Shown: positions 6,321 to 43,600 of the stretch, piece after piece
Layout of the letters: every line of letters starts with the position of its first letter
Numbering within the stretch: the first letter of the stretch is position 1
Sequence record: OZ035798.1
DNA length: 44,918 bases
Direction: 5' to 3' (one strand)
Origin: Vectrevirus LI10P3
The notes under the pieces: generated by a model
Told to the model about the DNA's origin: nothing
The model's input: only the letters and a program-made list of their open reading frames with translations
Database searches by the model: none
Program-made: the position numbers and the translations under genes

Positions 6321-6327
6321 GCAACAG

Positions 6328-6350: not shown

Positions 6351-6405
6351 ACGCAACTTTTCTTAAAGGTTATCATGGTGGTAGCCTTTCAGAAGAGGAG
6401 GTTAC

Positions 6406-25334: not shown

Positions 25335-25729
25335 AATCATCGGAGGTAGCAGCTTATAAGAGGGAACTGCTAGAGAAGCAAGGATGGAAGTGCCCCCTAT
25401 GTGGCGGCAGCCTCAAGGCTGTTACTCCTATAAACCGTGTACTTGACCATGACCATGAGACAGGATTCTGCCGTGCTGTTGTATGCCGAGGCTGCAATGG
25501 TGCAGAAGGAAAGATTAAGGGTGTTATCTCTGGTTATGGTAAGGCTGGTAACAACCGTTACTTCCAGCTTCAATGGTTAGAGCGACTATATGAATACTGG
25601 AAGTTACATAGTACGCCTCAGACAGATAAGTTATATCACAAACATCAAACGGAGGCAGAGAAGCGCGAGGTTAAGAACCGTAAGGCACGCCTTGCTTATG
25701 CAAGAAAGAAGGAGGTTAAAGTTGGGTAA
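25319..25729 (+). CDS. Endonuclease VII-family junction-resolving nuclease
   Basis: CPLCGG...LDHDHETGFCRAVVCRGCNGAEG, typical Endonuclease_7 zinc-binding and catalytic motif. Confidence 0.75.
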   Translation: MVSKLKSSEVAAYKRELLEKQGWKCPLCGGSLKAVTPINRVLDHDHETGFCRAVVCRGCNGAEGKIKGVISGYGKAGNNRYFQLQWLERLYEYWKLHSTPQTDKLYHKHQTEAEKREVKNRKARLAYARKKEVKVG

Positions 25730-26729
25730 GCTTCGCAGCTTGTACAAAGACTCCGAGGTACTTGATGCAATCGAGCAAGCTACCGACGAGAAAGGTAATG
25801 TTAATTACAATGAGATGGCACGTGTATTATCGTGTCACCCTGTGGGTAAGAAGATTACCCGCCAGTTGGCTCGATACTGGCATGGTCAATTCAAGAAGAC
25901 CAAGAAGAATGGTGATTATTACCAGACCCTTCTGCAAGAAGATAAGCGTATCAAAGAAGAGCGTAAGCTCAGGACTCCTGACCGCTACGAGGATTTGGCT
26001 ATTGTACCATTGCCTGACTCGCCTCATCGAAGTGTATTGGTAATCCCTGATACTCATGCACCTTATGAGCATCCAGATACCTTAGAGTTCCTTGCAGCAG
26101 TCGCGGCACGTTACCGTCCAGACACAGTGGTACACCTAGGAGATGAGGCAGACAAACATGCCTTGTCATTCCACGATTCGGACCCAAATCTGGATAGTGC
26201 TGGCATGGAGTTAGAGAAGTCTCGTATCTTCATGCACAAATTGCACAAGATGTTCCCTGTGATGCGCCTGTGTCACTCCAACCACGGCTCTATGCACTTC
26301 CGTAAGGCAAGCGCCAAGGGCATCCCTGTGCAATACCTGCGCACCTACCGTGAAGTTTTCTTCCCGCAGGGAGGTGGCGACCAGTGGGATTGGCAACATA
26401 CGCACGTCCTTGAGTTGCCGAATGGTGAGCAAGTGGCATTCAAGCATCAACCTGCTGGCTCTGTCCTAGCGGATGCAGCGCATGAGCGTATGAACCTTGT
26501 GTGTGGTCACTTGCACGGTAAGATGTCTGTGGAGTACGCACGTAATACACATGAACAGTATTGGGCTGTGCAAGGTGGCTGCTTAATTGATGAGTCATCC
26601 CGTGCATTTGCCTATGGGCGTGAGTCTAAATACAAGCCAGCATTAGGTTGTGTGGTTATTCTGGAGGGTGTACCTCATATTGTCCCGATGCAAACCAATA
26701 GCGACAACCGTTGGATTGGCAAGATTTAG
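25722..26729 (+). CDS. Calcineurin-like metallophosphoesterase
   Basis: Motifs PDTHAPYEHPD, HLGDEADKHA, SNHGSMH, CGHLHG; proposed TTG start with GGAGG RBS, start uncertain. Confidence 0.65.
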   Translation: MGKLRSLYKDSEVLDAIEQATDEKGNVNYNEMARVLSCHPVGKKITRQLARYWHGQFKKTKKNGDYYQTLLQEDKRIKEERKLRTPDRYEDLAIVPLPDSPHRSVLVIPDTHAPYEHPDTLEFLAAVAARYRPDTVVHLGDEADKHALSFHDSDPNLDSAGMELEKSRIFMHKLHKMFPVMRLCHSNHGSMHFRKASAKGIPVQYLRTYREVFFPQGGGDQWDWQHTHVLELPNGEQVAFKHQPAGSVLADAAHERMNLVCGHLHGKMSVEYARNTHEQYWAVQGGCLIDESSRAFAYGRESKYKPALGCVVILEGVPHIVPMQTNSDNRWIGKI

Positions 26730-26746
26730 TTGACACTATAGAACAA
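26724..26746 (+). promoter_or_regulatory. Phage RNAP promoter
   Basis: ATTTAGTTGACACTATAGAACAA, SP6-like. Confidence 0.7.
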
Positions 26747-26829
26747 AGGGCTAGGTAAGACTTTATCGGCTGGCGTATCCAAATGATATTGCACTAGCCC
26801 TTGATTGTATAGTGAATGGAGGATTCAAT

Positions 26830-27333
26830 ATGTCACACTATGAATGTAAGAAGTGTCATAAGCGTTATGATTACTGTACTTGTGGTCAAGAGAAAACATC
26901 TTTTAAAGTTGGAGACAAGGTATTTCGTAATGAAAAAGATTCTATTCCTTGGAATCAATTCTGCAAAGAAGCTGGTATTGACCCTGATAGCCCTGTAACC
27001 ATAGATGATATTGATGGCATTAACTTGTGCTTTCGTGAGGTGAGGGGTACAGGTTGGGATTCCAAAAAATTCAAACTTGCATCTGATAAGTTAGACAACA
27101 ATATGGTAACTCAGCCTAAGCACTACGAGTTCTTTGATGGTGTAGAGGCAATCACTATCATTGCCCGCAGTATGACTGAAAAGCAATTCGCTGGGTACTG
27201 CATGGGTAATGCCCTTAAGTATCGCCTGCGTGCAGGTAAGAAGTTCAATACTGAAGAAGACTTGAAGAAGGCAGACTATTATAAAGAGTTATTCCAGAAG
27301 CATCGTCACGAATGTATTGATGAGGATATTTAA
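26830..27333 (+). CDS. gp1.7-like protein (DUF3310 C-terminal domain, putative nucleotide kinase) with N-terminal Cys cluster
   Basis: KHYEFFDGVEAITIIARSMTEKQFAGYCMGNALKYRLRAGKK...ADYYKELFQKH parallels the recalled T7 gp1.7 C-terminus; GGAGGA RBS. Confidence 0.65.
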   Translation: MSHYECKKCHKRYDYCTCGQEKTSFKVGDKVFRNEKDSIPWNQFCKEAGIDPDSPVTIDDIDGINLCFREVRGTGWDSKKFKLASDKLDNNMVTQPKHYEFFDGVEAITIIARSMTEKQFAGYCMGNALKYRLRAGKKFNTEEDLKKADYYKELFQKHRHECIDEDI

Positions 27334-27334
27334 T

Positions 27335-27508
27335 ATGGAAGGTAAACTGTATAGAGGGTACTTCGGTAACTTATATAAAGTAAGCTCTCGCGGTTTTGTA
27401 TTGACCTCTGATGATGAAGGTGCAATGTGGCACCTAAGTGCATATGGTTCTAACTTAGCACACTTTAAAGAGGCAATAGTCAAAGGTGTGATGAAGGAGG
27501 TGAAATGA
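27335..27508 (+). CDS. Hypothetical protein (57 aa)
   Basis: GAGGA RBS; couples to the ligase start. Confidence 0.4.
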   Translation: MEGKLYRGYFGNLYKVSSRGFVLTSDDEGAMWHLSAYGSNLAHFKEAIVKGVMKEVK

Positions 27509-28452
27509 ACATCTTCCAATTCCTAGGTCTTCCAGAAGACCACCGCAATCATCCATTCATGCTGGTGAAGCATCGCGGTGAAGTTCCTGAGAAGAAACTT
27601 ACTTTTCCATGTTATGCACAGGTGAAACGAGATGGAATATTCAGTGCTGTTGTGGTGCGCAATGATGGTGCTGTTGCCATCTTTGGTCGTACTGGTAAGA
27701 AGCTCGCAAATGTTGAATCCTTGGAAAAGACATTTAGTGTATTTCCTGTCGGGTTGTATCTTGGTGAGTTGCAATCTATGGCTGTTGATGTTTATCTTGA
27801 AGCTCTGTCAGGAGTGGTAAACCCTAATCGTACAGAGCCACTTGACTTCATAGGCCAGCAGATTAAAGACAACCTGTATATCGACTTCTTCGATATGTTA
27901 ACTATTAAGGCATTCCATGATGGATTCACTGATGTTTCTTATCTCAAACGTTACGATGCTTTACATCGCCGCATCGGCGCTCATCTTAGCGGGTACAACG
28001 CTATCCTTCCTATTACTCCTTGCCATAATGAGCGAGAAGTTGAAGCGTTTGCGCAAGAGCAGATAGACGCAGGCCGAGAAGGTGCGGTATTTAAACTTGA
28101 CGTGGAGTACGAAAGTGGGCACAAGGGCTATCGTCAAACGAAGATCGTTCGTATGGTATCTTACGACCTAACCTGTATTGGGTGGGAGGAAGGAAAAGGT
28201 AAGTATAAAGGTAAAGTAGCTAATTTAATCTTTAAATGGAAAGGTGGTAAGTCCGTTAAGGCTATGCTGGGGCGTGGCTGGTCACATGAGGATGCAGCAC
28301 AGATGTATCACGATATTAAACACGGTGGCGAACTAAACGTCATTGGGAAAATCTTCGCTGTTAAGGCGTTACAGGAATCTAGTAAGGGAGTTCTGAGACT
28401 TCCCAAGGTTTCTGAACTTAGGTTTGATAAGGAAGTCCCTGATGTCTTCTAA
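27505..28452 (+). CDS. ATP-dependent DNA ligase
   Basis: Adenylation motif I KRDG (AQVKRDGIF); 315 aa; GGAGGTG RBS. Confidence 0.85.
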   Translation: MNIFQFLGLPEDHRNHPFMLVKHRGEVPEKKLTFPCYAQVKRDGIFSAVVVRNDGAVAIFGRTGKKLANVESLEKTFSVFPVGLYLGELQSMAVDVYLEALSGVVNPNRTEPLDFIGQQIKDNLYIDFFDMLTIKAFHDGFTDVSYLKRYDALHRRIGAHLSGYNAILPITPCHNEREVEAFAQEQIDAGREGAVFKLDVEYESGHKGYRQTKIVRMVSYDLTCIGWEEGKGKYKGKVANLIFKWKGGKSVKAMLGRGWSHEDAAQMYHDIKHGGELNVIGKIFAVKALQESSKGVLRLPKVSELRFDKEVPDVF

Positions 28453-28927
28453 TCCAAATTATCGAAAACCACCTCGTACACCGCCAAGACCACTTGCCTA
28501 CTGTCCTTTTACTGGAAAGCTTTTCCGTAAGTTCAAAGATGGCTGGAGAGAAACAGGACTTAGCAGAAAGAGTGATGGATATTTACAGTGTAAAGTCGAT
28601 GGTAAGACTGTAAGTGTTCATGTTTTAGCAATGAATATGATGGGTTATGACACTACCGGCTTTACAGTAGATCACATAAATCATATACGCTGGGATAATA
28701 GGTTTATTAATCTACGTCTATTATCTCATAAAGATAATTGTTTAAATAGAGAGGCGATACATATAAGTAAGCTGCCGAGTGGTAACTACAGAGCGCGATG
28801 TGGAAATGTTCATCTTGGCGTATTTGAGGATAAGTTACTTGCTCGTGGTGCTATCCTATGGTATCGCCATAGGAGATTTAATAATGTTAAATTCAATGAA
28901 GGCAACGCGTGCCGTAGAAGTAGCTGA
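28442..28927 (+). CDS. HNH endonuclease
   Basis: VDHINHIRWDNRFINLRLLSHKDN motif; overlaps the ligase stop. Confidence 0.75.
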   Translation: MSSNPNYRKPPRTPPRPLAYCPFTGKLFRKFKDGWRETGLSRKSDGYLQCKVDGKTVSVHVLAMNMMGYDTTGFTVDHINHIRWDNRFINLRLLSHKDNCLNREAIHISKLPSGNYRARCGNVHLGVFEDKLLARGAILWYRHRRFNNVKFNEGNACRRSS

Positions 28928-29078
28928 AGCTATATTTGAAACTCTATCCTGTGGCATGGAAGTGCCATATACTTTACTGGCTGATGCAGAAGCGCTTGGT
29001 CTTTCTGTAGAAGCTATCCAAGAGAAGGTTGACGAATTATATGGTACAGACGAAGAAGAAACCGACGATTTCATTTGA
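28884..29078 (+). CDS. Hypothetical small acidic protein (64 aa)
   Basis: GGAG RBS; ends ...TDEEETDDFI; start uncertain. Confidence 0.3.
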   Translation: MLNSMKATRAVEVAEAIFETLSCGMEVPYTLLADAEALGLSVEAIQEKVDELYGTDEEETDDFI

Positions 29079-29207
29079 AGGAATGGAGATGCTTGAGATG
29101 ATTCTCAAGCCTTCTTCTCCTAAGGTGACTAAGACTCATGAAGAGTTAATCGTTGATGAGGTTAAGCGTTACATCATGGATTGTGTCAGAGCACAACTGG
29201 TGATCCA

Positions 29208-29669
29208 ATGATACGTCCAGCTTCCTTCCTAGATATTCCTGAGATTATAAACCTTGGGAATAAATATGTGGAAGAGGAAGTCAAGGTTGTAGCCCACCAC
29301 TCAGCCTCATGGAATGCAGAACAAAGTGCACATAACCTTTGTGCATCTCTTAGTAGAGAAGATTTATTCCTATGGGTTGCTGTAGATGAAGGGCAGATTG
29401 TAGGGTTCCTGTGGGCTGGCTATCACGAGTTGGCCCCTTGGACACCTGTAAGAGTTGCCTCTGACATTCTCTTTTATATTATACCAGAGAGGCGAGGAAC
29501 ACTTCTTGGTATGCGTCTCATCAAAGCCCTAAAGCAATGGGCTAGTGATAATGAATGCTCTGAGGTTCGCCTGTCTATCGCCTCTGGTATTAATGAAGAA
29601 CGTGTCGGACGTATGTATAAGCGACTTGGCTTTGAACCGTTTGGCACTGTGTATAACATGAAGTTCTAA
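29208..29669 (+). CDS. GNAT-family N-acetyltransferase
   Basis: 153 aa; acetyl-CoA-binding type motif RRGTLLGMRLIKAL and overall GNAT-like pattern. Confidence 0.55.
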   Translation: MIRPASFLDIPEIINLGNKYVEEEVKVVAHHSASWNAEQSAHNLCASLSREDLFLWVAVDEGQIVGFLWAGYHELAPWTPVRVASDILFYIIPERRGTLLGMRLIKALKQWASDNECSEVRLSIASGINEERVGRMYKRLGFEPFGTVYNMKF

Positions 29670-29678
29670 GGAGATAAC

Positions 29679-29888
29679 ATGGGTGTTGTAAAGAAAGCAT
29701 TTAAGGCTATCGGTCTTGCTCAAGATGCACCACGTATTGAAGCCAAAGTACCAGCACAGCAGCTTGAGCGTAAGCCTGAGACTGAAGCTGAAGATATTCA
29801 AATTGGTGCAGGTGGTGATGATGCGACTGCATCTGCAAAAGGTAAGCGCGGCCTTGTCCGTCCGGTAGCTTCTAGCTTGAAGGTGTGA
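29679..29888 (+). CDS. gp6.7-like small virion protein
   Basis: AAGGAGA RBS; Gly/Ala-rich, basic C-terminus; sits immediately before the portal gene. Confidence 0.45.
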   Translation: MGVVKKAFKAIGLAQDAPRIEAKVPAQQLERKPETEAEDIQIGAGGDDATASAKGKRGLVRPVASSLKV

Positions 29889-29889
29889 T

Positions 29890-31440
29890 ATGAAACAGAG
29901 CACAGATTTGGAGTATGGAGGTAAGAGATCTAAGATACCTAAGCTATGGGAGAAGTTCTCCACTAAACGTAGCTCTTTCCTTGATAGGGCGAAGCATTAC
30001 TCCAAATTAACCTTGCCCTATCTGATGAATGACAAAGGTGATAATGAGACTTCGCAGAATGGATGGCAAGGTGTGGGTGCTCAGGCAACTAATCATCTAG
30101 CCAACAAGCTAGCGCAAGTACTATTCCCTGCACAGCGTTCCTTCTTCCGTGTAGACTTAACTGCACAAGGTGAGAAGGTTCTTAATCAGCGTGGCCTGAA
30201 GAAGACAGAGCTAGCTACCATCTTCGCTCAAGTGGAAACACGGGCAATGAAAGAGTTAGAGCAACGTCAATTCCGGCCTGCTGTAGTAGAAGCATTTAAG
30301 CATCTTATTGTTGCTGGCAGCTGTATGCTATACAAGCCGAGCAAAGGTGCAATCAGTGCTATCCCAATGCATCACTACGTAGTTAACCGTGATACCAATG
30401 GCGACCTGTTAGACATTATCTTGCTACAAGAGAAAGCCTTACGTACCTTTGACCCAGCTACACGTGCTGTAGTAGAGGTTGGCCTGAAAGGTAAGAAGTG
30501 CAAGGAAGATGACAGCGTTAAGCTGTACACACATGCTAAGTATCTTGGTGATGGATTTTGGGAACTCAAGCAATCTGCTGATGATATCCCTGTGGGTAAG
30601 GTGAGTAAAATCAAATCAGAAAAGCTACCTTTCATCCCATTAACTTGGAAGCGAAGCTATGGTGAGGATTGGGGTCGCCCTCTTGCAGAGGATTACTCCG
30701 GTGATTTATTCGTTATCCAATTCTTATCTGAAGCGGTTGCCCGTGGTGCTGCGCTGATGGCAGATATCAAGTACCTGATTCGTCCGGGTGCTCAAACTGA
30801 TGTTGACCACTTTGTTAACTCTGGCACTGGTGAGGTTGTCACTGGTGTAGAAGAAGACATCCATATTGTACAGTTAGGTAAGTACGCAGACCTCACACCT
30901 ATTAGCGCGGTTCTAGAGGTATACACTCGCCGTATCGGTGTTGTCTTTATGATGGAGACAATGACACGCCGTGACGCCGAACGTGTTACTGCTGTAGAAA
31001 TCCAGCGAGATGCGTTAGAGATTGAGCAGAACATGGGTGGTGTATACTCCCTCTTTGCTACTACTATGCAATCGCCAGTAGCGATGTGGGGTCTGCTGGA
31101 GGCAGGGGAGTCCTTCACTAGTGACCTAGTGGACCCTGTGATTATCACAGGTATTGAAGCTTTAGGACGCATGGCTGAGTTGGATAAACTGGCTAACTTT
31201 GCCCAGTATATGTCACTGCCATTACAATGGCCTGAGCCTGTCCTAGCTGCTGTGAAATGGCCTGACTATATGGATTGGGTGCGTGGTCAAATCTCTGCTG
31301 AACTGCCGTTCCTTAAATCGGCTGAAGAGATGGCACAAGAACAGGAAGCACAGATGCAAGCACAGCAAGCACAGATGCTTGAAGAAGGTGTGGCTAAGGC
31401 CGTGCCGGGTGTAATTCAACAAGAACTTAAGGAGGCGTAA
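29890..31440 (+). CDS. Portal (head-tail connector, gp8-like)
   Basis: QNGWQGVGAQATNHLANKLAQVLFP and ERVTAVEIQRDALEIEQNMGGVYS blocks parallel recalled T7 gp8; 516 aa. Confidence 0.9.
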   Translation: MKQSTDLEYGGKRSKIPKLWEKFSTKRSSFLDRAKHYSKLTLPYLMNDKGDNETSQNGWQGVGAQATNHLANKLAQVLFPAQRSFFRVDLTAQGEKVLNQRGLKKTELATIFAQVETRAMKELEQRQFRPAVVEAFKHLIVAGSCMLYKPSKGAISAIPMHHYVVNRDTNGDLLDIILLQEKALRTFDPATRAVVEVGLKGKKCKEDDSVKLYTHAKYLGDGFWELKQSADDIPVGKVSKIKSEKLPFIPLTWKRSYGEDWGRPLAEDYSGDLFVIQFLSEAVARGAALMADIKYLIRPGAQTDVDHFVNSGTGEVVTGVEEDIHIVQLGKYADLTPISAVLEVYTRRIGVVFMMETMTRRDAERVTAVEIQRDALEIEQNMGGVYSLFATTMQSPVAMWGLLEAGESFTSDLVDPVIITGIEALGRMAELDKLANFAQYMSLPLQWPEPVLAAVKWPDYMDWVRGQISAELPFLKSAEEMAQEQEAQMQAQQAQMLEEGVAKAVPGVIQQELKEA

Positions 31441-32360
31441 TGTCTTTCTCATTTACTGAACCGTCAACCACTCACCCTACTGCTGAAGAGGGTCCGGTAG
31501 AAACCAAGGAGGTAACAACTGATGCTGCTACTACTGATGCTCCTGCTGACGCTGGCACTGCTGTACAAGATGACAATGCTGGTGCACAACCTACTGAAGA
31601 CACCGGAGGAGAAGCTTCTGGACAGCCTTCAGAAAAAGGAGACAATGGCGGAGAGAATGGTGAACCTAAGCCAGATGATACCACGACCGACACTGAGGAA
31701 GTGCAATACTTCTTCGGAGAACATGAAGTAACAGTAGACATCCCACAGGATGTAACTGACAGCCTTAAAGAGAAAGGCATTGATGCCAAGCAGGTTGCCA
31801 AGGAACTCTATTCCAAAGGTGGCAAGTTTGAACTGTCAGATGCAACCAAGCAGAAATTGTATGATGCTTTTGGCAAGTTTGCGGTAGATGCTTACCTGTC
31901 AGGTCTTAAGGCTCAAAATGAAGCCTTCTTCCTGAAAGAAGCCAACGCAGCTAAAGAGTTGGAAGCAGCTAACACCCAACGCTTCTCTGATGTTTCTAAG
32001 GAAATTGGTGGCGAAGAAGGTTGGTCCCGTCTTGAGGAGTGGGCACTTGAAGCGCTGTCTGATGACGAACTAATGGCATTCAATGCGGTGATGGAGTCTG
32101 GCAACCAGTACCTCCAGCAGTACGCTGTGCGTGAACTGGAGAGCCGCCGTAAGGCTGCACAGGGTGATGATAGGCCATCCCTGATTGAGCCATCAGCACC
32201 TGCTAAGGCTAATGAAGAGAATGGCCCACTGACGCGAGATCAGTACGTTCAAGCAATCGCAACTCTTAGCCAGAAGTACGGCAATGACCGTAAAGCTATG
32301 GCAGAAGCTCAGGCTAAACTGGACGCCCGTCGCCGTGCTGGCATGGCTCGCGGTATCTAA
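31440..32360 (+). CDS. Capsid assembly scaffolding protein (gp9-like)
   Basis: Acidic low-complexity N-terminus, helical C-terminus; position between portal and capsid. Confidence 0.75.
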   Translation: MSFSFTEPSTTHPTAEEGPVETKEVTTDAATTDAPADAGTAVQDDNAGAQPTEDTGGEASGQPSEKGDNGGENGEPKPDDTTTDTEEVQYFFGEHEVTVDIPQDVTDSLKEKGIDAKQVAKELYSKGGKFELSDATKQKLYDAFGKFAVDAYLSGLKAQNEAFFLKEANAAKELEAANTQRFSDVSKEIGGEEGWSRLEEWALEALSDDELMAFNAVMESGNQYLQQYAVRELESRRKAAQGDDRPSLIEPSAPAKANEENGPLTRDQYVQAIATLSQKYGNDRKAMAEAQAKLDARRRAGMARGI

Positions 32361-32366
32361 TTCAGT

Positions 32367-32389
32367 ATTTACTGGACACTATAGAAGGG
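32367..32389 (+). promoter_or_regulatory. Phage RNAP promoter (major late, capsid)
   Basis: ATTTACTGGACACTATAGAAGGG, perfect consensus upstream of the capsid gene. Confidence 0.9.
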
Positions 32390-32439: not shown

Positions 32440-33648
32440 ATGTCTACACCGAATACTCTGACTAACGTTGCTGTATCTGCATCCGGTGAGGTTGACAGCC
32501 TTCTCATTGAGAAGTTTAATGGTAAGGTCAATGAGCAGTACCTGAAAGGTGAGAACATTCTGTCCTACTTTGATGTACAAACTGTTACTGGCACTAACAC
32601 AGTGAGCAACAAATATTTGGGCGAAACTGAGTTGCAGGTGCTAGCACCGGGTCAGTCTCCTAATGCCACCCCTACTCAGGCGGATAAAAACCAGTTGGTA
32701 ATTGATACCACTGTCATTGCTCGTAACACTGTGGCTCACATCCACGATGTACAAGGTGACATCGATAGCCTGAAACCAAAACTGGCTATGAACCAAGCCA
32801 AGCAACTGAAACGTCTGGAAGACCAGATGGCAATCCAGCAGATGCTGTTAGGCGGTATTGCTAACACCAAGGCCAAACGTAACAAGCCGCGTGTTAAAGG
32901 GCATGGCTTCTCTATCAACGTTAACGTAACTGAGAGTGAAGCACTGGCTAACCCTCAGTATGTTATGGCTGCGGTAGAGTATGCTCTGGAGCAACAGCTT
33001 GAGCAGGAAGTGGACATCTCTGATGTAGCTATCATGATGCCGTGGAAGTTCTTCAATGCTCTGCGTGATGCAGACCGAATTGTAGATAAGACTTACACTA
33101 TCAGCCAGTCTGGTGCAACCATTAATGGCTTCGTTCTCTCTTCTTATAACTGCCCTGTGATCCCGTCTAACCGATTCCCTACCTTCGCTCAGAATCAGGC
33201 TCACCACCTGCTGTCTAATGAAGATAACGGCTATCGTTATGACCCTATCGCAGAGATGAATGGTGCAGTTGCTGTTCTGTTCACTGCCGACGCACTGCTG
33301 GTGGGTCGTACCATTGAAGTGACTGGTGACATCTTCTATGAGAAGAAAGAGAAGACTTATTACATTGACACCTTCATGGCTGAGGGTGCAATCCCTGACC
33401 GTTGGGAAGCAGTGTCTGTAGTTACCACTAAACGTAATGCAACTACTGGTGCTGCTGAAGGTTCTGGTGATGATCACGCAACCGTACTGGCTCGTGCACA
33501 GCGTAAGGCTGTATATGTCAAAACCGAAGGTGCTGCGGCTGCATTCTCTGCTGCCCCAGCAGGTATCCAAGCGGAAGACCTTGTAGCGGCGGTACGTGCT
33601 GTAATGGCAAATGACATCAAGCCGACTGCAATGAAACCTGCTGAGTAA
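32440..33648 (+). CDS. Major capsid protein (gp10-like)
   Basis: AAGGAGA RBS; 402 aa; N-terminal pattern similar to recalled T7 gp10; followed by a strong terminator. Confidence 0.9.
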   Translation: MSTPNTLTNVAVSASGEVDSLLIEKFNGKVNEQYLKGENILSYFDVQTVTGTNTVSNKYLGETELQVLAPGQSPNATPTQADKNQLVIDTTVIARNTVAHIHDVQGDIDSLKPKLAMNQAKQLKRLEDQMAIQQMLLGGIANTKAKRNKPRVKGHGFSINVNVTESEALANPQYVMAAVEYALEQQLEQEVDISDVAIMMPWKFFNALRDADRIVDKTYTISQSGATINGFVLSSYNCPVIPSNRFPTFAQNQAHHLLSNEDNGYRYDPIAEMNGAVAVLFTADALLVGRTIEVTGDIFYEKKEKTYYIDTFMAEGAIPDRWEAVSVVTTKRNATTGAAEGSGDDHATVLARAQRKAVYVKTEGAAAAFSAAPAGIQAEDLVAAVRAVMANDIKPTAMKPAE

Positions 33649-33656
33649 TACCTATG

Positions 33657-33689
33657 CCCTATCTACCTTGCGTAGGTAGGGTTCTTTTT
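33657..33689 (+). terminator. Intrinsic terminator after the capsid gene
   Basis: CCCTATCTAC-cttgc-GTAGGTAGGG, 10 bp stem, then TTCTTTTT. Confidence 0.6.
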
Positions 33690-33702: not shown

Positions 33703-34440
33703 ATGCCTGTTATTAAACAACAAAGTTACACTGGCTATACTGTCTCAGATGTAGCCTTTCAAGTGATTGATAGTAAGCTGGAGGCTGTTAACCTTTGTAT
33801 GCGAGCCATTGGTCGTGAGGGTGTGGATTCTCTCGACTCAGGCGACCTTGATGCTGAAGATGCTAGCAAAATGATTGATATCGTCTCCCAACGTTTCCAA
33901 TACAACAAAGGAGGTGGTTGGTGGTTTAACCGTGAGCCTAACTGGCAGCTTGCACCAGATACTAATGGTGAGGTTAACTTGCCTAATAACTGCCTAGCTG
34001 TATTGCAGTGCTACGCATTGGGTGAGAAGAAAGTGCCTATGACTATGCGTGCAGGTAAGCTTTACTCCACATGGAGTCACACCTTTGATATGCGCAAGCA
34101 TGTTAATGCTAATGGCATGATTCGTCTTACCTTACTTACCTTACTACCCTACGAGCATCTACCTACAAGTGTAATGCAGGCTATTGCCTATCAAGCTGCT
34201 GTAGAGTTTATTGTGTCTAAGGATGCAGATCAGACTAAGCTAGCCACTGCGCAGCAGATAGCCACTCAGCTTCTTATGGATGTACAATCTGAGCAAATGT
34301 CACAGAAGCGATTAAACATGCTGGTACATAACCCCACTCAGCGACAGTTTGGCATCATGGCTGGTGGCTCTCAGAATGTACCTGCTTACTCTCATTCACC
34401 TTATGATAGTTGGGCGCTCCGTCCGTGGGAGGATCGTTAA
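33703..34440 (+). CDS. Tail tubular protein A (gp11-like)
   Basis: GGAGGA RBS; position and size. Confidence 0.8.
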   Translation: MPVIKQQSYTGYTVSDVAFQVIDSKLEAVNLCMRAIGREGVDSLDSGDLDAEDASKMIDIVSQRFQYNKGGGWWFNREPNWQLAPDTNGEVNLPNNCLAVLQCYALGEKKVPMTMRAGKLYSTWSHTFDMRKHVNANGMIRLTLLTLLPYEHLPTSVMQAIAYQAAVEFIVSKDADQTKLATAQQIATQLLMDVQSEQMSQKRLNMLVHNPTQRQFGIMAGGSQNVPAYSHSPYDSWALRPWEDR

Positions 34441-36842
34441 TGGAAGTACAAGGTTCATTAGGTAGACAAATCCAAGGCATTAGCCAGCAGCCGCCAGCGG
34501 TACGCTTGGATGGTCAGTGCACAGCCATGATTAATATGATACCTGATGTAGTGAATGGTACTCAATCACGCATGGGTACAACTCATATTGCAAAGATACT
34601 TGATGCGGGGACTGATGACATGGCTACTCATCATTATCGCAGAGGTGATGGTGATGAAGAGTATTTCTTCACGTTGAAGAAAGGACAAGTTCCTGAGATA
34701 TTTGATAAGTATGGGCGCAAATGTAATGTGACTTCACAAGATACACCTATGGCTTACTTGGCTGAGGTGATAAACCCAAGAGAAGATGTACAATTCATGA
34801 CGATAGCTGATGTTACTTTCATGCTTAATCGTAGGAAAGTAGTTAAAGCTAGTAACAGGAAGTCACCTAAAGTTGGAAACAAAGCCATTGTGTTTTGTGC
34901 GTATGGTCAATATGGTACATCTTATTCCATTGTAATTAATGGGACCAACGCTGCTAGTTTTAAAACACCGGATGGTGGAAGTGCAGACCATGTTGAACAA
35001 ATTCGAACTGAACGTATCACTTCTGAATTGTACTCTAAGTTGCAGCAATGGAGCGGTGTGAGTGACTATGAAATACAAAGAGACGGTACTAGTATATTTA
35101 TCGAGAGACGGGATGGTGCTAGCTTTACAATAACAACCACCGATGGTGCAAAAGGTAAGGACTTAGTGGCTATCAAGAATAAAGTTAGCTCTACTGACCT
35201 ACTCCCTTCTCGTGCTCCTGCTGGTTATAAAGTACAAGTGTGGCCCACTGGCAGCAAACCTGAGTCTCGTTACTGGCTGCAAGCTGAGCCTAAAGAGGGA
35301 AACCTTGTGTCTTGGAAAGAAACAATAGCTGCCGATGTATTACTTGGGTTTGATAAAGGCACAATGCCTTATATCATTGAACGTACAGGTATCGTAGACG
35401 GCATAGCTCAATTCAAGATAAGACAAGGCGATTGGGAAGATCGTAAAGTAGGAGATGACCTGACTAACCCTATGCCTTCTTTTATTGATGAAGAAGTACC
35501 TCAGACAATAGGTGGGATGTTCATGGTGCAGAACCGCCTATGCTTTACAGCAGGTGAAGCTGTTATTGCTTCTCGTACATCATACTTCTTCGATTTCTTT
35601 CGTTATACGGTTATCTCTGCATTGGCAACTGACCCATTTGATATTTTCTCAGATGCTAGTGAAGTCTACCAGCTAAAACATGCAGTGACCTTAGATGGCG
35701 CTACCGTGTTGTTCTCTGATAAGTCACAATTCATACTGCCAGGAGATAAGCCTTTAGAGAAGTCAAATGCATTGCTTAAGCCTGTTACAACATTTGAAGT
35801 GAACAATAAAGTGAAGCCAGTAGTAACTGGTGAATCGGTAATGTTTGCCACTAATGATGGTTCTTACTCTGGTGTACGAGAGTTCTATACAGACTCTTAT
35901 AGTGACACTAAGAAGGCACAAGCAATCACAAGTCATGTGAATAAACTCATCGAAGGTAACATTACCAACATGGCAGCAAGCACCAATGTCAACAGGTTAC
36001 TTGTCACTACCGATAAGTATCGTAACATAGTCTACTGCTACGATTGGTTATGGCAAGGAACAGACCGTGTACAATCAGCATGGCATGTATGGAAGTGGCC
36101 TATAGGTACAAAGGTGCGAGGTATGTTTTATTCTGGCGAATTACTTTACCTGCTCCTTGAGAGAGGCAATGGTGTCTATCTGGAGAAGATGGATATGGGT
36201 GATGCATTAACCTATGGTTTAAATGATCGCATCCGAATGGATAGACAGGCAGAGTTAATCTTCCAGCATTTCAAAGCAGAAGATGAATGGGTATCTGAAC
36301 CGCTACCTTGGGTTCCTACTAACCCAGAACTTTTAGATTGCATCTTAATCGAGGGTTGGGATTCATATATTGGTGGTTCTTTCCTATTCAAATACAACCC
36401 CGGTGATAACACCTTGTCTACAACCTTTGATATGCATGATGATAGCCACGTAAAAGCGAAGGTTATTGTTGGTCAGATTTACCCTCAAGAGTTTGAACCA
36501 ACACCTGTAGTTATCAGAGATAGGCAAGACCGTGTATCCTATATTGATGTACCTGTTGTGGGACTAGTTCACCTTAATCTTGATATGTATCCTGATTTCT
36601 CCGTGGAGGTTAAGAATGTGAAGAGTGGTAAAGTACGCAGGGTGCTAGCGTCAAACCGTATAGGTGGTGCTCTCAACAATACAGTAGGTTATGTTGAACC
36701 AAGAGAAGGTGTCTTCAGATTCCCACTGAGAGCTAAGAGTACGGATGCTGTTTATCGTATTATTGTAGAATCACCTCACACATTCCAGCTTCGTGATATT
36801 GAGTGGGAAGGGAGCTACAATCCAACCAAAAGGAGGGTCTAA
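34440..36842 (+). CDS. Tail tubular protein B (gp12-like)
   Basis: TAATG coupling; N-terminal GISQQP motif as in recalled T7 gp12; 800 aa. Confidence 0.85.
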   Translation: MEVQGSLGRQIQGISQQPPAVRLDGQCTAMINMIPDVVNGTQSRMGTTHIAKILDAGTDDMATHHYRRGDGDEEYFFTLKKGQVPEIFDKYGRKCNVTSQDTPMAYLAEVINPREDVQFMTIADVTFMLNRRKVVKASNRKSPKVGNKAIVFCAYGQYGTSYSIVINGTNAASFKTPDGGSADHVEQIRTERITSELYSKLQQWSGVSDYEIQRDGTSIFIERRDGASFTITTTDGAKGKDLVAIKNKVSSTDLLPSRAPAGYKVQVWPTGSKPESRYWLQAEPKEGNLVSWKETIAADVLLGFDKGTMPYIIERTGIVDGIAQFKIRQGDWEDRKVGDDLTNPMPSFIDEEVPQTIGGMFMVQNRLCFTAGEAVIASRTSYFFDFFRYTVISALATDPFDIFSDASEVYQLKHAVTLDGATVLFSDKSQFILPGDKPLEKSNALLKPVTTFEVNNKVKPVVTGESVMFATNDGSYSGVREFYTDSYSDTKKAQAITSHVNKLIEGNITNMAASTNVNRLLVTTDKYRNIVYCYDWLWQGTDRVQSAWHVWKWPIGTKVRGMFYSGELLYLLLERGNGVYLEKMDMGDALTYGLNDRIRMDRQAELIFQHFKAEDEWVSEPLPWVPTNPELLDCILIEGWDSYIGGSFLFKYNPGDNTLSTTFDMHDDSHVKAKVIVGQIYPQEFEPTPVVIRDRQDRVSYIDVPVVGLVHLNLDMYPDFSVEVKNVKSGKVRRVLASNRIGGALNNTVGYVEPREGVFRFPLRAKSTDAVYRIIVESPHTFQLRDIEWEGSYNPTKRRV

Positions 36843-37588
36843 TGGCTATAGGTTCAGCCGTTATGGCTGGTATGTCTTCTATTGGTAGTATGTTTGCAGG
36901 TAGCGGTGCAGCCGCCGCTGCTGGTGGTACTGCCGCAGCCGCAGGAGGGACAGCCGCCGCAGGTGGCGGAGGTTTGCTTGGCTCCCTTGGTAGTTTCTTA
37001 GGAGGTTCTTCTGCTGGCTTCTCTAATGCAGGACTGCTTAGTGCAGGTATGCAAGGTCTTGGTCTTCTAGGCAATCTTTTTGGTGGAAGTGATGAAGCCA
37101 AAGCTATGAAGAAAGCTCAGGAGGAGCAATGGCGGCAGCAGTTAATTGCTACACAAGAAGCATATAAGACAGTGGCAGATGCAGAACGCTCTGCTGCTAA
37201 ACAGTATCATGCGGATGCAATAAGCAATCAGGCTTCACTGCTACAGCAAAGAGCGCAGGTTGCACTACTTGCAGGTGCAACTGGCACTGGTGGTAACTCT
37301 GTATCTTCTATGCTGAATGACTTAGCAGCAGAGGGCGGGAGGAACCAGAGTACAATTATTGATAACTATGAGAATCAGAAGATTAACTTCACCAATCAGC
37401 TTAAGTCTATCCAGCGAGGTGGACAGATGCAGATGCGTGAGTTTAAGAAGCCTTCTGCCGTGAGCACCTTGGTGCAAGGTATACCGAGTCTGGCATCTGC
37501 CTATGTAACAGGTAGTAAGTCCGGCATGGCTTTAGGTAAAGCTTTAACTGATTCTCGTACATATTCATCTGGAACAAGAGGTATTTAA
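36842..37588 (+). CDS. Internal virion protein (Gly/Ala-rich)
   Basis: GGAGGG RBS; poly-Ala/Gly low-complexity N-terminal half; translationally coupled on both sides. Confidence 0.7.
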   Translation: MAIGSAVMAGMSSIGSMFAGSGAAAAAGGTAAAAGGTAAAGGGGLLGSLGSFLGGSSAGFSNAGLLSAGMQGLGLLGNLFGGSDEAKAMKKAQEEQWRQQLIATQEAYKTVADAERSAAKQYHADAISNQASLLQQRAQVALLAGATGTGGNSVSSMLNDLAAEGGRNQSTIIDNYENQKINFTNQLKSIQRGGQMQMREFKKPSAVSTLVQGIPSLASAYVTGSKSGMALGKALTDSRTYSSGTRGI

Positions 37589-40536: not shown

Positions 40537-40548
40537 TATCTAACTCAA

Positions 40549-40575
40549 GGCTTGTCTCACATGTGAGACAGGTCT
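40549..40575 (+). repeat. Conserved palindrome, copy 6 (extended hairpin, terminator-like)
   Basis: GGCTTGTCTCACATGTGAGACAGGTCT then TTATG. Confidence 0.65.
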
Positions 40576-40600
40576 TTATGATAGGCACTATGGAGGAATT

Positions 40601-43600
40601 ATGGAACAAGACATTAAGACTAATTGGGCTGGATATGTCCAGTCTACTCCTGAGCCGTTTTCTATTGAGGCGGCTCCGGTATCGGCTCCTACGATACGCC
40701 AGCGTAATGAGTTACAAGAGCAAGTTCTTGAAGCTAAAGCTGATGCTGATATCTTAGGTGCTGTAGGTGCTGCCTTCCAGAATGAGTGGTTGGCATTCGG
40801 AGGCAAGCGGTGGTATGACCGTGCCACTGCTGATTTCACACCTCAACCAGACTTCGAGATACAACCTGAGCAACGTGAAGCACTACGTTTCAAATATGGT
40901 ACAGATATGATGCAGACAATCACTGAGGGTGTTCGTTCTGAGGATGAATTGAACTTCCGTATTCAGAATGCTGATGAAGACCTTGAGCGCAATAAGCGCA
41001 TTACTCAGGCTGGCTGGGTTGGCTCTGTGGCGACGATTGGCGCTGCTGTGCTTGACCCAGTGGGTTGGGTTGCCTCTATCCCAACTGGCGGTGCAGCCAA
41101 AGTCGGCCTCGTAGGTCGTGCCGTGCGTGGCGCTATCGCCGCTGGCGTGAGCAATGCCGCTATTGAATCCGTATTGGTCCAAAGTGACATGACTCGTGAT
41201 TTAGATGACATTATGGTAGCACTAGGTTCCGGTATGGCTATGGGTGGCGTTATTGGCGCTGTAGCGCGTGGTAGGGCCACTAAGCTCAGTGAGCAAGGGG
41301 ATGACAGGGCTGCGAGCATTGTGCGCAGTGCAGACGCAGGGGACCGCTATGTGCGTGCTGTTGCTGATGACAGTATCGGTGCGATGCGTGTTAAGGGCGA
41401 AGAGGTACTCACTGAGGGCGCATTTGATATATCTAGTAAAGGCGAAGACTTGCTGAAAACATTGCAGAGGGAGGGGAACTCTATTGATATGACCCCTCGC
41501 CGCTGGGCCGGAACCATGTCTGCCCTTGGGACTGTCGTGCACTCCTCTCATGATGCTAGTGTTCGTGGCCTCGGTGCTCGCCTGTTTGAGTCTCCGCAAG
41601 GTTTAGGTATGCAAAAGGCATCTGCCAGTCTTATGCAGAATACCAACTTGAATCGACTGAAGTCTGCTGATATGAACCGTTTCAATGACGGGTTTGACTT
41701 ATGGCTCAAAGAAAATAATATCAATCCAGTTGCAGGCCATACTAACTCTCACTATGTGCAGCAATATAATGAGAAGGTATGGGAAGCTGTACGCATCGGT
41801 ATGGATGAGTCTACGCCTAAGTCTATCCGTATGGCAGCAGAGGGGCAGCAAGCTATGTACCGAGAAGCCTTAGCTTTAAGGAAGCGCTCCGGTGAAGCTG
41901 GCTTTGAAAACATTAAAGCAGATAATAAGTATATGCCTGATATCTTTGACACTATGAAAGCTCGCCGTCAATTTGATAGGATAGGAAAGGATATAGATAA
42001 AGAAGATATCATTGAGTTATTCTCTCGTGCTTATCAGAACGGCGCTCGTAAAATTCCAAAAGAAGTAGCGGATGAAATTGCACGAGCACAAGTAAACCGT
42101 GTTGTGGATGCCACTCTGACAGGACGTATGAGTTTCGAAAAGGCTATGTCTGGTCAGACTAAAGCCGAGTATGAAGCAATAATGCGCAAGGCAGGCTTCA
42201 GTGATGAAGAAATTGAAAAGATGGTAGAAGCTCTGGATAACAAAGAAACCAGAGATAACATCTCTAACCGAGCTAAAATGAGTTTAGGATTAGATGTTAC
42301 TCAAGAATACAATGGTATTCGTATGCGTGACTTCATGAATACCAACGTGGAAGAGCTAACAGATAACTATATGAAGGAGGCAGCAGGTGGCGCTGCATTG
42401 GCCCGTCAAGGATTCTCTACCTATCAGGCTGCACTTAATGCAATTGACCTTGTAGAGCGAAATGCACGAAACGCGGCTAAGGATAGCAAGGCTAGCTTAG
42501 CACTAGATGAAGAGATTCGTCAAATGCGAGAAGGGCTTCGCTTGATTATGGGTAAATCTATCGATGTAGACCCACAGGCTTTGTCTACTAAAATGCTGCG
42601 ACGTGGTCGTGACATTACAGGTGTACTTCGCTTAGGTCAGATGGGCTTCGCACAGCTAGGTGAACTTGCTAACTTCATGGGTGAGTTTGGTATTGCTGCA
42701 ACCACTATAGCTTTAGGTAAGCAATTCCGCTTTACATCTAAGGCTTTGCGGAGCGGTGATGGCTTCTTTCGAGATAAGAACTTGGCAGAAGTAGAGAGAA
42801 TGGTAGGTTACATTGGTGAGGATAACTGGCTAACAACCAAGGGTGCACGTCCAGATGAGTTTGGTGATGTAACCACAGTAAAAGGGATGATGGCTCACTT
42901 TGACCAATCCATGAACTCAATACGTCGTGCTCAGACCAACCTATCACTTTTCCGCATGGCACAGGGTTCTCTGGAGCGAATGACCAATAGGCAAATAGCT
43001 TTGTCTTTCATTGACCACCTTGAAGGCAAGAAGATTATTCCTCAGAAGAAACTGGAGGAACTTGGTCTTACTCAGGAGTTCATGACTAATCTACAGAAGC
43101 ACTATGATGCTAACTCTAAAGGTTCTGGCTTGCTTGGCTTTGATACAATGCCTTATGCCATGGGTGAAACTTTAGCTAATGCTATTCGTCGTAAGTCAGG
43201 TCTAATTATCCAACGTAACTTCATTGGTGATGAAGGTATCTGGATGAACAAAGCACTAGGTAAGACATTTGCACAGCTTAAGTCATTCTCTCTTGTATCT
43301 GGTGAGAAGCAATTTGGTCGAGGGATTCGCCACGATAAAATTGGTCTTGCTAAGAAGACAGCTTACGGGTTTGCTTTGGGTTCAATAGTATATGCGGCAA
43401 AAGCCTATGTGAACTCTATTGGGCGAGAAGACCAAGATGAATATTTGGAAGAGAAGTTATCTCCTAAAGGGTTGGCCTTTGGTGCAATGGGTATGATGAG
43501 TACAACTGCTGTATTTAGTCTAGGTGGAGATTTCTTAGGTGGCCTAGGTGTTCTACCTTCTGAGTTAGTACAATCCCGTTATGAGGCTGGCTTTCAGACT

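Follow-up and report, generated by a model that had tools for sequence, protein, structure and literature searches.

Immediately ahead of its structural genes, the genome of Vectrevirus LI10P3 (sequence record OZ035798.1) carries an open reading frame (ORF) whose product resembles a GNAT-family acetyltransferase. What is such an enzyme doing at this point of a podophage genome, and what would it modify? We examined the ORF within the whole stretch of DNA analysed here (the window, 44,918 nucleotides).

The gene and its predicted fold

The ORF runs from ATG 29208 to TAA 29667-29669 on the plus strand (29208-29669; 153 codons plus stop), as originally predicted. ATG 29208 is the likely start because all 26 aligned homologues begin MIRP or MIRQ at this position, the codon overlaps the TGA of the preceding 60-aa ORF (ATGA, 29208-29211) and GGTGA lies 5 nt upstream. 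An alternative TTG start at 29181, giving 162 aa, was rejected on the first two of these grounds.

Profile, fold and family evidence all support the GNAT assignment made in the original prediction, which had proposed comparison with GNAT profile HMMs. Three Pfam GNAT models scored above their gathering thresholds: Acetyltransf_1 (PF00583; 40.6 bits, cut-off 20.7, E=3.4e-10), Acetyltransf_7 (PF13508; 38.1 bits, cut-off 27) and Acetyltransf_10 (PF13673; 25.6 bits, cut-off 23.6). The protein also matched the PHROG family phrog_1249, annotated "acetyltransferase" (E=4.8e-54), and the further families phrog_3810 and phrog_6472 (E<=0.01). An AF2 model (pLDDT 90.7, pTM 0.87) has the full GNAT order b1-a1-a2-b2-b3-b4-a3-b5-a4-b6-b7, helix 4 included (E2-4, H7-28, H37-47, E53-60, E63-76, E79-91, H99-114, E119-123, H130-139, E143-145, E148-152). 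Searched against the PDB with Foldseek, the model gave 865 matches at E<=1e-3, the best 50 of which were all GNAT-fold proteins, with TM 0.7-0.8 to solved GNATs. No second GNAT-like gene was found within the window.

The segment RRGTLLGMRLIKAL (residues 95-108; 29490-29531, plus strand), singled out from the start as the acetyl-CoA-binding motif, is indeed the predicted motif A, that is, the pyrophosphate-binding loop plus the start of helix 3, on the basis of its conservation and its place in the structural model. There it falls where strand 4 passes into helix 3, between E79-91 and H99-114, which in GNATs is the CoA pyrophosphate site. R96 is invariant in 76 diverse family members at 25-54% identity, across which the consensus PExRG...RLI...W...LYERLGF is kept, and both R96 and G97 are invariant in 27 closer homologues. 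Set against the GNAT motif A Q/R-x-x-G-x-G/A, the loop reads R96-G97-T-L-L-G101. With two exceptions, the 27 aligned homologues have Gly, Ala or Ser at position +5, and the central Gly of the canonical loop, at which many active GNATs deviate, is Leu in the window and Leu or another non-glycine in homologues.

The Leu at this central position would suit a pseudo-enzyme, a structural GNAT fold that has lost catalysis and only binds, as may hold for T7 gp7 with its degenerate loop and missing helix 4; so would the Tyr of MYKRLGF (the general-acid position of SSAT), which is Phe in several homologues. We regard this as very improbable, given that the window family retains the complete GNAT topology with helix 4, the invariant motif-A Arg and a conserved motif-B-like segment, that it passes the Pfam thresholds, and that Rac of phage LUZ19 requires its acetyl-CoA pocket (PMC7552054). 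Catalytic competence of the window GNAT is likely, judging from the invariance of R96, the retained consensus and the way Y90 and R96 line up with Y and R in the QYV..R region of Rac.

A conserved slot before the structural genes

The window comes from a K1-5/K1E-like Vectrevirus, and the gene is already known: the phage shares about 99% identity with Vectrevirus isolates already sequenced (Escherichia phages 6949 and EEc2), and by sequence and neighbourhood its GNAT is the orthologue of K1-5 gp27, K1E gp27 and SP6 gp28, annotated "acetyltransferase". These share the length of 153 aa and the neighbours (the 60-aa ORF; a gp7.3-like gene and the portal gene). Protein identity to the window GNAT is 95-100% for K1E-type and other Vectrevirus orthologues and 75% for SP6 gp28; in the K1-5 reference copy 66 bp (22 aa) are duplicated in tandem and in frame, which is not so in the window. 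Conservation in 248 phage records and a dN/dS of 0.04-0.2, indicating purifying selection, place the gene far beyond chance. Taken together, alignments and model show a genuine gene under selection for what is predicted to be a single-domain GNAT-fold acyl-CoA N-acyltransferase. Some family members are longer (277-385 aa); all five of these scanned, drawn from the top 150 family representatives, carry GNAT domains only, mostly as apparent tandem repeats. Isoelectric points across the family are scattered from 4.8 to 9.7. Neither these values nor the domain make-up of the longer proteins gives a clue to function. Literature searches returned no reported function for the SP6/K1-5-type GNAT, and the sole mention of an 'acetyltransferase' in PMC4837284 concerns a different gene.

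The gene had been placed between the replication block and the portal gene, and this holds, with DNA-metabolism genes upstream (DNA ligase, 27505-28452) and the portal (head-tail connector) gene downstream (29890-31440, plus strand; phrog_449, E=3.7e-186). Between GNAT and portal, however, lies a gene for a 69-aa gp7.3-type virion protein, a tail/ejection 'wedge' protein (29679-29888, plus strand; phrog_1320, E=1.9e-11), so that the next gene after the GNAT is the first structural gene and not the portal. T7 gp7.3 matches phrog_1320 too (E=9.7e-30), and the motif EDIQIG...GKRGLVRP is common to the 69-aa protein and the equivalent ORFs of SP6, Era103, VEN, uligo and ECBP5; a small pre-portal ORF has been proposed as the gp7.3 orthologue across Autographivirales (bioRxiv 10.64898/2026.05.18.726046). 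Directly upstream of the GNAT is the conserved small ORF, 60 aa from TTG 29029 (29029-29211, plus strand; phrog_6507, E=1.1e-36) or 56 aa from ATG 29041 as annotated in K1-5. Two genes upstream an HNH endonuclease gene is inserted, as in just 3 of the 77 relatives that match.

The order ligase, 60-aa ORF, GNAT, gp7.3-like gene, portal, scaffold is kept in all 29 close viral contigs, with the small ORF directly upstream of the GNAT in 27 of them; the other two contigs end near the GNAT. Colwellvirinae, Gajwadongvirus, Krylovirinae and gh-1-like phages show this arrangement as well. A GNAT also occupies this slot in SP6, Era103, Vibrio phage VEN, Pseudomonas phage uligo and ECBP5 and in phages of Pseudomonas syringae and Marinomonas, and a homologous GNAT stands at the equivalent position in LUZ19, Axy23, LIMEzero and phiB1_1 and in the gh-1-like KNP and Henninger. 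The premise that acetyltransferases are not core genes of the T7 group therefore fails here: the GNAT is present in every close contig and in many T7-family phages, phiKMV-like and gh-1-like phages have an equivalent, and T7 gene 7 itself models as a GNAT fold. Gene order and profile comparison show an old GNAT lineage, as far as homology can be read from them, held in one fixed Autographiviridae slot (small ORF, GNAT, gp7.3-like gene, portal) and including LUZ19 Rac. The gene evolves at core-gene pace in phages whose hosts span Enterobacterales, Vibrio, Pseudomonas and roseobacters, which suits a substrate conserved in the phages, or one universal among hosts, better than a host-specific target.

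The overlap between the small ORF and the GNAT start is kept in SP6, Era103, VEN, uligo, ECBP5 and LUZ19, and the upstream small ORFs of SP6-like and phiKMV-like phages compare at E=0.012, merely suggestive of homology. Such an overlap is also a feature of toxin-antitoxin pairs and, with the toxicity of Rac expressed alone (PMC7552054), might point to a TacT/AtaT-type GNAT toxin that acetylates aminoacyl-tRNA, with the small ORF as its antitoxin. We give this hardly any credence. The 60-aa ORF carries no antitoxin signature, DUF1778 included (Pfam gives only GHL10 and SipA, two unrelated families far below cut-off), for which reason a toxin-antitoxin reading was rejected; no toxin-family model was among the NCBIfam or Pfam matches, and shutting down translation while structural genes are expressed would be self-defeating. 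A relationship to defence systems was likewise rejected, as PADLOC gave no match, which also counts against the toxin reading.

The nearest phage RNA-polymerase promoter upstream of the GNAT, gattTAGTTGACACTATAGaac, is a pattern match at 26727-26741 (plus strand). The pattern has 13 matches against 0.45 expected by chance, and 12 of them, all on the plus strand, share a wider consensus. By this pattern no other phage promoter was found between 26727 and 32370; the next match (32370-32384, plus strand) lies between the scaffold and capsid genes, where LUZ19 also has a phage promoter. After the capsid gene, in the place of the T7 Tphi terminator, a strong terminator-like hairpin (33656-33682, plus strand; 11-bp stem followed by a T run) is the probable end of the transcription unit, and no convincing terminator was found upstream of 33656 within that unit. 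Given these two promoters and this first terminator, the GNAT is most probably co-transcribed with the genes for nucleotide kinase, ligase, portal and scaffold. The ATGA overlap suggests that translation of the 60-aa ORF and the GNAT may be coupled.

Rac, T7 gene 7 and the SIO1-type genes as points of comparison

Rac (LUZ19 gp28) is the sole member of the lineage to have been studied experimentally. It triggers removal of the C-terminal domain of the RNA polymerase alpha subunit by host proteases, raises cellular lysine acetylation and is toxic to the host; mutation of the Q, Y, V and R residues of its acetyl-CoA pocket abolishes the phenotype (PMC7552054). Its direct substrate was never identified, and alpha cleavage was seen only with Phikmvvirus members, the Rac-type homologue of LKA1 causing none (PMC7552054), which makes the precedent thin and genus-specific.

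The window GNAT is related to Rac by remote homology and by a shared genomic slot. Family profiles aligned with hhalign matched the Rac family at E=7.6e-10 (76-member profile; probability 96.5%, 130 columns) and E=5e-8 (50-member profile), and a Rac-family HMM run over 408 six-frame ORFs of the window matched the GNAT ORF only (E=4.8e-6). Among 38,880 PHROG families, the non-self matches of Rac-family proteins were phrog_2746, the family of T7 gp7 (E down to 3e-8), and phrog_1249, that of the window GNAT; Axy23 alone adds two weaker ones, phrog_5167 and phrog_3810. Family alignments were needed for this: BLASTP found no pairwise similarity between the window protein and Rac, a profile set against Rac as one sequence reached only a marginal E=0.055, the window protein did not match the Rac family phrog_3986 at E<=0.01, and collection scans with single Rac and gp7 sequences recovered near-identical relatives only. 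Like the window protein, Rac is a GNAT of about 150 aa within an identical gene order (small ORF, GNAT, small virion protein, portal, scaffold, promoter, capsid), and the profile homology is nearly full length and includes a conserved Y and R in the strand-4/loop region. The two differ in the C-terminal third, where the Rac family has W-S-H-R...Y and the window GNAT a canonical helix-4 segment, and in that the rac gene follows the phage RNA polymerase gene whereas the window GNAT follows the ligase.

With Rac as the only experimental precedent, host-directed protein acetylation is what we would expect of the window GNAT. Our preferred explanation, to which we give a little less than an even chance, is a non-virion enzyme using acetyl-CoA for protein acetylation in the infected cell: the GNAT would be produced as DNA metabolism gives way to assembly, in mid-to-late infection, and by acetylating proteins of that cell would aid host takeover. 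Cleavage of alpha, being specific to one phage genus, is not expected to be conserved. For a phiKMV-like phage, an atlas built from cryo-EM and LC-MS/MS catalogues 14 structural proteins with no mention of an acetyltransferase, and on this basis we count the GNAT as not a virion protein. Its function may be accessory, given the 22-aa duplication in K1-5 and the dispensability of T7 gene 7. Outside this lineage, AcrVA5 is a mobile-element GNAT that disables a host protein (Cas12a) by lysine acetylation; it is considerably shorter and comes from an anti-CRISPR locus of a Moraxella prophage, a context that is not comparable to that of the pre-portal GNAT. It is cited as the only other phage-linked example of acetylation (PMC7552054).

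In another explanation, the GNAT would be a non-structural assembly factor that acylates or chaperones ejected proteins (the gp7.3-like protein; internal virion proteins encoded at 36803-43798), so that particles made without it would be less infective or altered in host range. In T7 this slot, just ahead of the gp7.3 gene with the portal gene beyond, belongs to gene 7 (PHROG 2746); gene 7 is dispensable in the laboratory, and the literature gives it only the labels 'host range' and 'non-essential'. Its 133-aa product has a predicted GNAT-like fold and is linked to the window family through the Rac family, but has no Pfam GNAT match and a degenerate or shortened CoA loop. The profile scores behind the gp7 link are weak (E=0.005-0.03); compared directly in hhalign, the window family and T7 gp7 gave E=0.025-0.03 over 29-61 columns, and a T7 gp7 HMM had no match over the window, whose GNAT is thus not a member of PHROG 2746 by sequence. 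The two are connected only by position, fold and the Rac-family bridge.

Relatives are also found in the Zobellviridae, where CRP-4 gp41 and SIO1 gp26.2 of Roseobacter phages are members of the same family as the window GNAT (phrog_1249, E=6e-23; 27-29% identity; Foldseek TM 0.86). Like the window GNAT, these are non-structural genes embedded in the structural module, but they lie in a slot flanked by tail tube protein B and the internal virion proteins rather than before the portal. Hardies et al. 2016 call this slot of SIO1/VpV262-type podophages IVP-A; they report that the T7 IVP-A, gp13, matches acetyltransferases too and is needed for morphogenesis without being kept in the virion (PMC4819975). 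In the window, the slot between tail tube B and IVP-B is empty and no gp13 match was found (best E=0.79), so that the GNAT could cover that role. By sequence match and slot the GNAT does not group with the gp13/IVP-A family (PF11090, PHROG 308).

An assembly role would thus be of the type ascribed to T7 IVP-A and annotated as 'host range' for T7 gene 7, and it gains from the Rac-gp7 family match, from the IVP-A position of the Zobellviridae relatives (PMC4819975), from the standing of the GNAT directly before a gp7.3-type gene in every case, in at least five subfamilies or genera, and from core-gene-like conservation across very different hosts, which fits a phage substrate. Several points weigh against it. 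Rac expressed alone acts on the host (PMC7552054), and no acetylation of a podophage virion protein was found in the literature examined. The comparison of gp13 with the window family is weak (hhalign local E=9.5e-4 over 19 columns, global E=1.4e-3), and the link to gp7 consists of weak profile scores plus fold and position. Gene order is generally conserved in this virus family, so adjacency need not mean functional coupling; and T7 has gp7.3, yet its gp7 has no recognisable acetyl-CoA loop, which argues that gp7.3 function needs no catalysis. We consider an assembly role unlikely on balance, and still a serious candidate.

Substrate class and wider reading

Could the substrate instead be a small molecule? 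A metabolite or toxin, for example a polyamine, an aminoglycoside or a toxic amino-acid analogue, might be acetylated to adjust the DNA-packaging milieu or to protect phage development. The closest solved proteins do include SSAT1/2 (diamine/thialysine), the polyamine enzyme DpA, PA4866 and phosphinothricin/bialaphos acetyltransferases; the weak NCBIfam matches are to ArsN1, AAC(6') and MshD models, and a relative in Pseudomonas phage Ulina01 is annotated 'aminoglycoside acetyltransferase' in GenBank. These likenesses are at a generic GNAT level, however, since every curated NCBIfam subfamily stayed far below its cut-off (for the small-molecule models just named, 14-28 bits against 124-325) and PDB sequence matches range only from E=7e-6 to 0.25. 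The best AAC(6') aminoglycoside model reached 25.3 bits against 140 and the others 13-17 against 225-325, and the PAT and ArsN1 (phosphinothricin/arsinothricin) models 27.7 against 170 and 24.3 against 210, the structural likeness to these last enzymes also being generic. No curated spermidine/spermine (diamine) acetyltransferase model matched, and phmmer matches to such proteins in the PDB, covering partial or whole length, have E=2.6e-4 to 8e-3. Equally good scores come from N-terminal protein acetyltransferases (Naa60, Ard1), the neighbourhood holds no metabolic partner genes and the Rac precedent is protein-directed. A small-molecule substrate is accordingly improbable in our estimate.

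Protein substrates are no better marked out by curated models, RimI (TIGR01575; the ribosomal protein bS18 alanine N-acetyltransferase) scoring 22.7 bits against 86.4, and among the best fold neighbours N-terminal acetyltransferases stand beside polyamine, phosphinothricin and aminoglycoside enzymes with comparable scores. Neither sequence nor fold reveals the substrate, and the range of targets first proposed (a host protein, a virion protein or a small molecule) is still fair.

A wider reading would join the SP6/K1-5 pre-portal GNAT, Rac, T7 gene 7 and the SIO1-type IVP-A gene into one ancient podophage lineage of non-virion GNAT-fold proteins, whose shared task would be to acylate or escort ejected proteins (the gp7.3-type wedge and internal virion proteins). 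We hold this to be rather unlikely. If it were true, infectivity and host range would depend on phage-encoded post-translational modification, and cleavage of RNA polymerase alpha would be a secondary, lineage-specific side activity.

The pre-portal GNAT is one of few enzymes of unknown role at a fixed position across much of the Autographiviridae, and its carriers include therapeutic phages of K1-capsule strains, Klebsiella, Proteus and Pseudomonas. If its targets are host proteins, it would be a takeover device of general use; if they are ejection proteins, this would account for the 'host range' label given to T7 gene 7 and be of consequence for engineering phage infectivity.

Identity and conservation of the GNAT gene

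The acetyltransferase-like GNAT ORF of the window, read from the sequence on the + strand, runs for 153 residues from ATG 29208 to TAA 29667-29669. The original prediction of GNAT-family membership is borne out at the levels of profile, family and fold. Our search against GNAT profiles was positive for three Pfam models above their curated cut-offs: Acetyltransf_1 (40.6 bits versus 20.7), Acetyltransf_7 (38.1 versus 27) and Acetyltransf_10 (25.6 versus 23.6). The family phrog_1249, 'acetyltransferase', covers the protein end to end (E=4.8e-54). An AlphaFold model built with 27 homologues (pLDDT 90.7, pTM 0.87) contains the complete GNAT strand and helix order, and Foldseek matched it to 865 PDB chains at E<=1e-3, the best 50 of which are all GNATs.

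A mechanical ORF list extends the frame upstream to TTG 29181. ATG 29208 is the likely start, because every aligned homologue opens with MIRP or MIRQ at this position, the codon shares bases with the TGA that ends the preceding 60-aa ORF (ATGA) and GGTGA lies 5 nt upstream.

The peptide that had suggested acetyl-CoA binding, RRGTLLGMRLIKAL, comprises residues 95-108 (nt 29490-29531) and lies in the model at the strand-4/helix-3 junction, the CoA pyrophosphate site in GNATs. All 27 homologues at 52-93% identity keep R96 and G97; in a set of 76 representatives (25-54% identity) only R96 never varies, and the consensus PExRG...RLI...W...SGI..ER...LYERLGF is kept. The canonical loop R-x-x-G-x-G/A reads R-G-T-L-L-G in the window, so the central glycine is absent, a frequent deviation among GNATs and no sign of inactivity. 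The enzyme is probably active; that it is a pseudo-enzyme is very unlikely, and less likely than the virion-protein role weighed below.

The K1-5 RefSeq record ('acetyltransferase'), K1E ('27: acetyltransferase') and SP6 ('28: acetyltransferase') carry labels for the orthologues, and the gene was thus already known and annotated; no paper found in our literature search assigns the SP6/K1-5-type protein a function. Over the surrounding 2 kb, identity is 99.2-99.3% with Escherichia phages 6949 and EEc2 and 97-99% with many genomes of Vectrevirus (K1-5/K1E-like phages). A protein-level search recovered the gene in 248 of 50,697 phage records, from phages of Escherichia, Salmonella, Klebsiella, Proteus, Erwinia, Pectobacterium, Vibrio, Aeromonas, Marinomonas and Pseudomonas syringae, with roseobacter phages as more distant members. 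Searching 1.84 billion representative proteins with a profile, we obtained 1,279 cluster representatives (E<=1e-10), of which the best 150 are nearly all single-domain proteins of ~150 aa. Single-copy in the window, the gene is under selection (dN/dS 0.04-0.20 against relatives at 69-95% nucleotide identity). The order ligase, 60-aa ORF, GNAT, 69-aa ORF, portal, scaffold is kept, as far as each contig reaches, in all 29 viral contigs whose homologue reaches 61% identity or more, and recurs in SP6 and Era103 (Molineuxvirinae), Vibrio phage VEN and Pseudomonas phage uligo (Colwellvirinae) and ECBP5 (Gajwadongvirus). The gene is a conserved part of this phage group's gene set, neither a sporadic accessory nor an oddity.

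The K1-5 reference (NC_008152) has a GNAT of 175 aa, at 6313-6840 of the compared K1-5 segment. Its extra length comes from 66 bp repeated in tandem and in frame, HHSASWNAEQSA...HHSASWNAEQSA, within the helix-1/helix-2 region (corresponding to about 29290-29330 in the window); this duplication is absent from the window and from 55 records at >=95% protein identity. This suggests either that a laboratory stock tolerated disruption or a sequencing or assembly artefact.

Neighbouring genes and transcription

PHROG scans agree with the surroundings described in the original prediction. Upstream lie a metallophosphoesterase (25590-26729), a nucleotide kinase (26812-27333), DNA ligase (27505-28452), a 167-aa HNH endonuclease (28424-28927, +; phrog_99, E=7e-27) and two small conserved ORFs; downstream are a 69-aa ORF (29679-29888, +), portal (29890-31440), scaffold (31440-32360) and major capsid protein (32440-33648). 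The HNH ORF, set between the ligase gene and the small ORFs with a 29-nt overlap of the ligase 3' end, looks like a mobile homing-endonuclease insertion; its segment is covered by 3 of 77 matching phage records, the rest aligning from about query position 492.

The second small ORF (29029-29211, +), whose stop overlaps the GNAT start, occurs in all SP6-like relatives at 42-98% identity. In Colwellvirinae, ECBP5 and LUZ19 (gp27) an ORF of similar size likewise overlaps the GNAT start or adjoins it, and a weak pattern is common to these ORFs (hhalign E=0.012). The product of the window ORF may serve GNAT as a partner, a regulator or a substrate.

Relatives label the 69-aa ORF only 'hypothetical' or '28'. 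Its family, phrog_1320 (E=1.9e-11), is also matched by T7 gp7.3 (E=9.7e-30), which identifies it at profile level as a predicted gp7.3-type ejected virion protein; Pfam VirionAssem_T7 (PF11653) misses it. Small and ejected, gp7.3 aids nozzle-adaptor joining (PMC11784390), and in a 2026 preprint it is put forward as a 'wedge' that is conserved throughout Autographivirales and encoded ahead of portal (bioRxiv 10.64898/2026.05.18.726046).

The phage RNA-polymerase promoter pattern has 13 matches in the window (0.45 expected by chance). Twelve are promoters of consensus ATTTACTGGACACTATAGAAG, all on the + strand (124, 2661, 4323, 10799, 14880, 17183, 17874, 21576, 22345, 23574, 26727 and 32370); the remaining match, at 10298 on the - strand, is without the wider consensus. 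Because the promoters flanking GNAT are at 26727 and 32370, and the sole convincing terminator (33656-33682) lies past the capsid gene, GNAT is probably co-transcribed with the late DNA-metabolism genes, portal and scaffold. It would be made with genes straddling the boundary between DNA metabolism and assembly. Its start codon shares bases with the stop codon of the conserved small ORF before it. The window (44,918 bp) is about as long as a whole Vectrevirus genome and circularly permuted relative to K1-5, with GNAT at 29.2 kb rather than 19.6 kb; an RNA polymerase-sized ORF lies at 12159-14786, and the window start may fall in the late region.

Relationship to Rac and T7 gene 7

Pseudomonas phage LUZ19 has the window's gene order: gp27 (small), gp28 (GNAT), gp29 (small virion protein), portal, scaffold, promoter, capsid. 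LUZ19 gp28 is Rac (PMC7552054). No similarity between Rac and the window GNAT was detected pairwise; family against family, they match at E=5e-8 with a 50-member profile and at E=7.6e-10 (probability 96.5%, 130 columns) with a 76-member profile, over nearly the full length of both. Among the window's 408 six-frame ORFs, a Rac-family HMM matched only GNAT (E=4.8e-6). Across 38,880 PHROG families, the non-self matches of Rac-family proteins are phrog_2746 and phrog_1249 (the latter from Axy23_032 at 2e-6, Rac at 4.9e-4 and LIMEzero ORF36 at 2e-3), Axy23 alone adding weak matches to phrog_5167 and phrog_3810. As these matches centre on two families, profile comparison argues for a kinship beyond mere common GNAT membership. 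Rac-type GNATs also occupy the same slot in gh-1-like Studiervirinae, between 6.7-like and 7.3-like genes.

The family phrog_2746 contains T7 gene 7 protein (E=3e-51) and is matched by Rac-family proteins at E=3e-8 to 1.6e-4; compared directly, family with family, the score is weak (E=0.0048 over 97 columns). Gene 7 (133 aa, annotated 'host range') lies directly 5' of gene 7.3; a Pfam scan of its protein gave no match. Ahead of the gp7.3 gene, a GNAT-fold gene appears to be the ancestral state of the phage family, and in T7 proper gene 7 probably now has the fold without catalysis, a reading drawn from position, fold and chained profile matches, which do not demonstrate orthology. Given T7 gene 7 at the same slot and the profile chain through the Rac family, the earlier statement placing acetyltransferases outside the core gene set of the T7 group has to be qualified.

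Candidate roles

Expression of Rac alone stops growth, raises lysine acetylation and leads to cleavage of the host RNA polymerase alpha subunit at Gln244/Glu245, with loss of its C-terminal domain; acetyl-CoA-pocket mutations abolish the effect, Rac itself is no protease and its direct substrate was not found (PMC7552054). The homologous GNAT of LKA1 causes no alpha cleavage (PMC7552054), and we do not expect cleavage itself to carry over to the window. GNAT would acetylate proteins, and we tentatively rank host-directed acetylation first, at a little short of an even chance, as the only activity in the lineage with experimental support.

The main alternative, possible but appreciably less probable, is that GNAT matures ejected virion proteins. 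Its adjacency to the gp7.3 gene is invariant, T7 gene 7 is labelled 'host range', and conservation is core-gene-like across hosts as unlike as E. coli, Vibrio and roseobacters. Relatives also occupy the IVP-A slot: roseobacter phages CRP-4 and SIO1 (Zobellviridae) encode a phrog_1249 member (E=6e-23; 27-29% identity, Foldseek TM 0.86), flanked by the gene of a tail protein on one side and those of the internal virion proteins on the other. Hardies et al. (PMC4819975) described this slot, naming SIO1 gp26.2, as non-structural, acetyltransferase-like and equivalent to T7 IVP-A (gp13), which they report also to match acetyltransferases by HHpred and to be required in morphogenesis yet absent from finished virions. 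The window has no gene in this slot, an internal virion protein (36803-37588, phrog_805) directly following tail tubular protein B (34410-36842), and no gp13 homologue anywhere. The gp13 and GNAT families align locally over only 19 N-terminal columns (E=9.5e-4) and globally in a colinear but weak manner (E=1.4e-3). As IVP-A is non-structural and a structural atlas of a phiKMV-like phage has no acetyltransferase among its proteins, we infer by analogy that GNAT is not a virion component.

Acetylation of a small molecule is improbable, more so than virion-protein maturation: the likeness to polyamine, phosphinothricin and aminoglycoside enzymes is only generic, and every curated subfamily model scores well below its cut-off. 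Least probable of all, and behind virion-protein maturation, is a tRNA-acetylating toxin.

The gene is not new, being annotated already in reference genomes of the phage group. Three by-products may be of modest use to workers on these phages: the profile-level link to Rac, the prediction that T7 gene 7 has a GNAT fold, and the placing of GNAT and the SIO1-type IVP-A-slot gene in one family.
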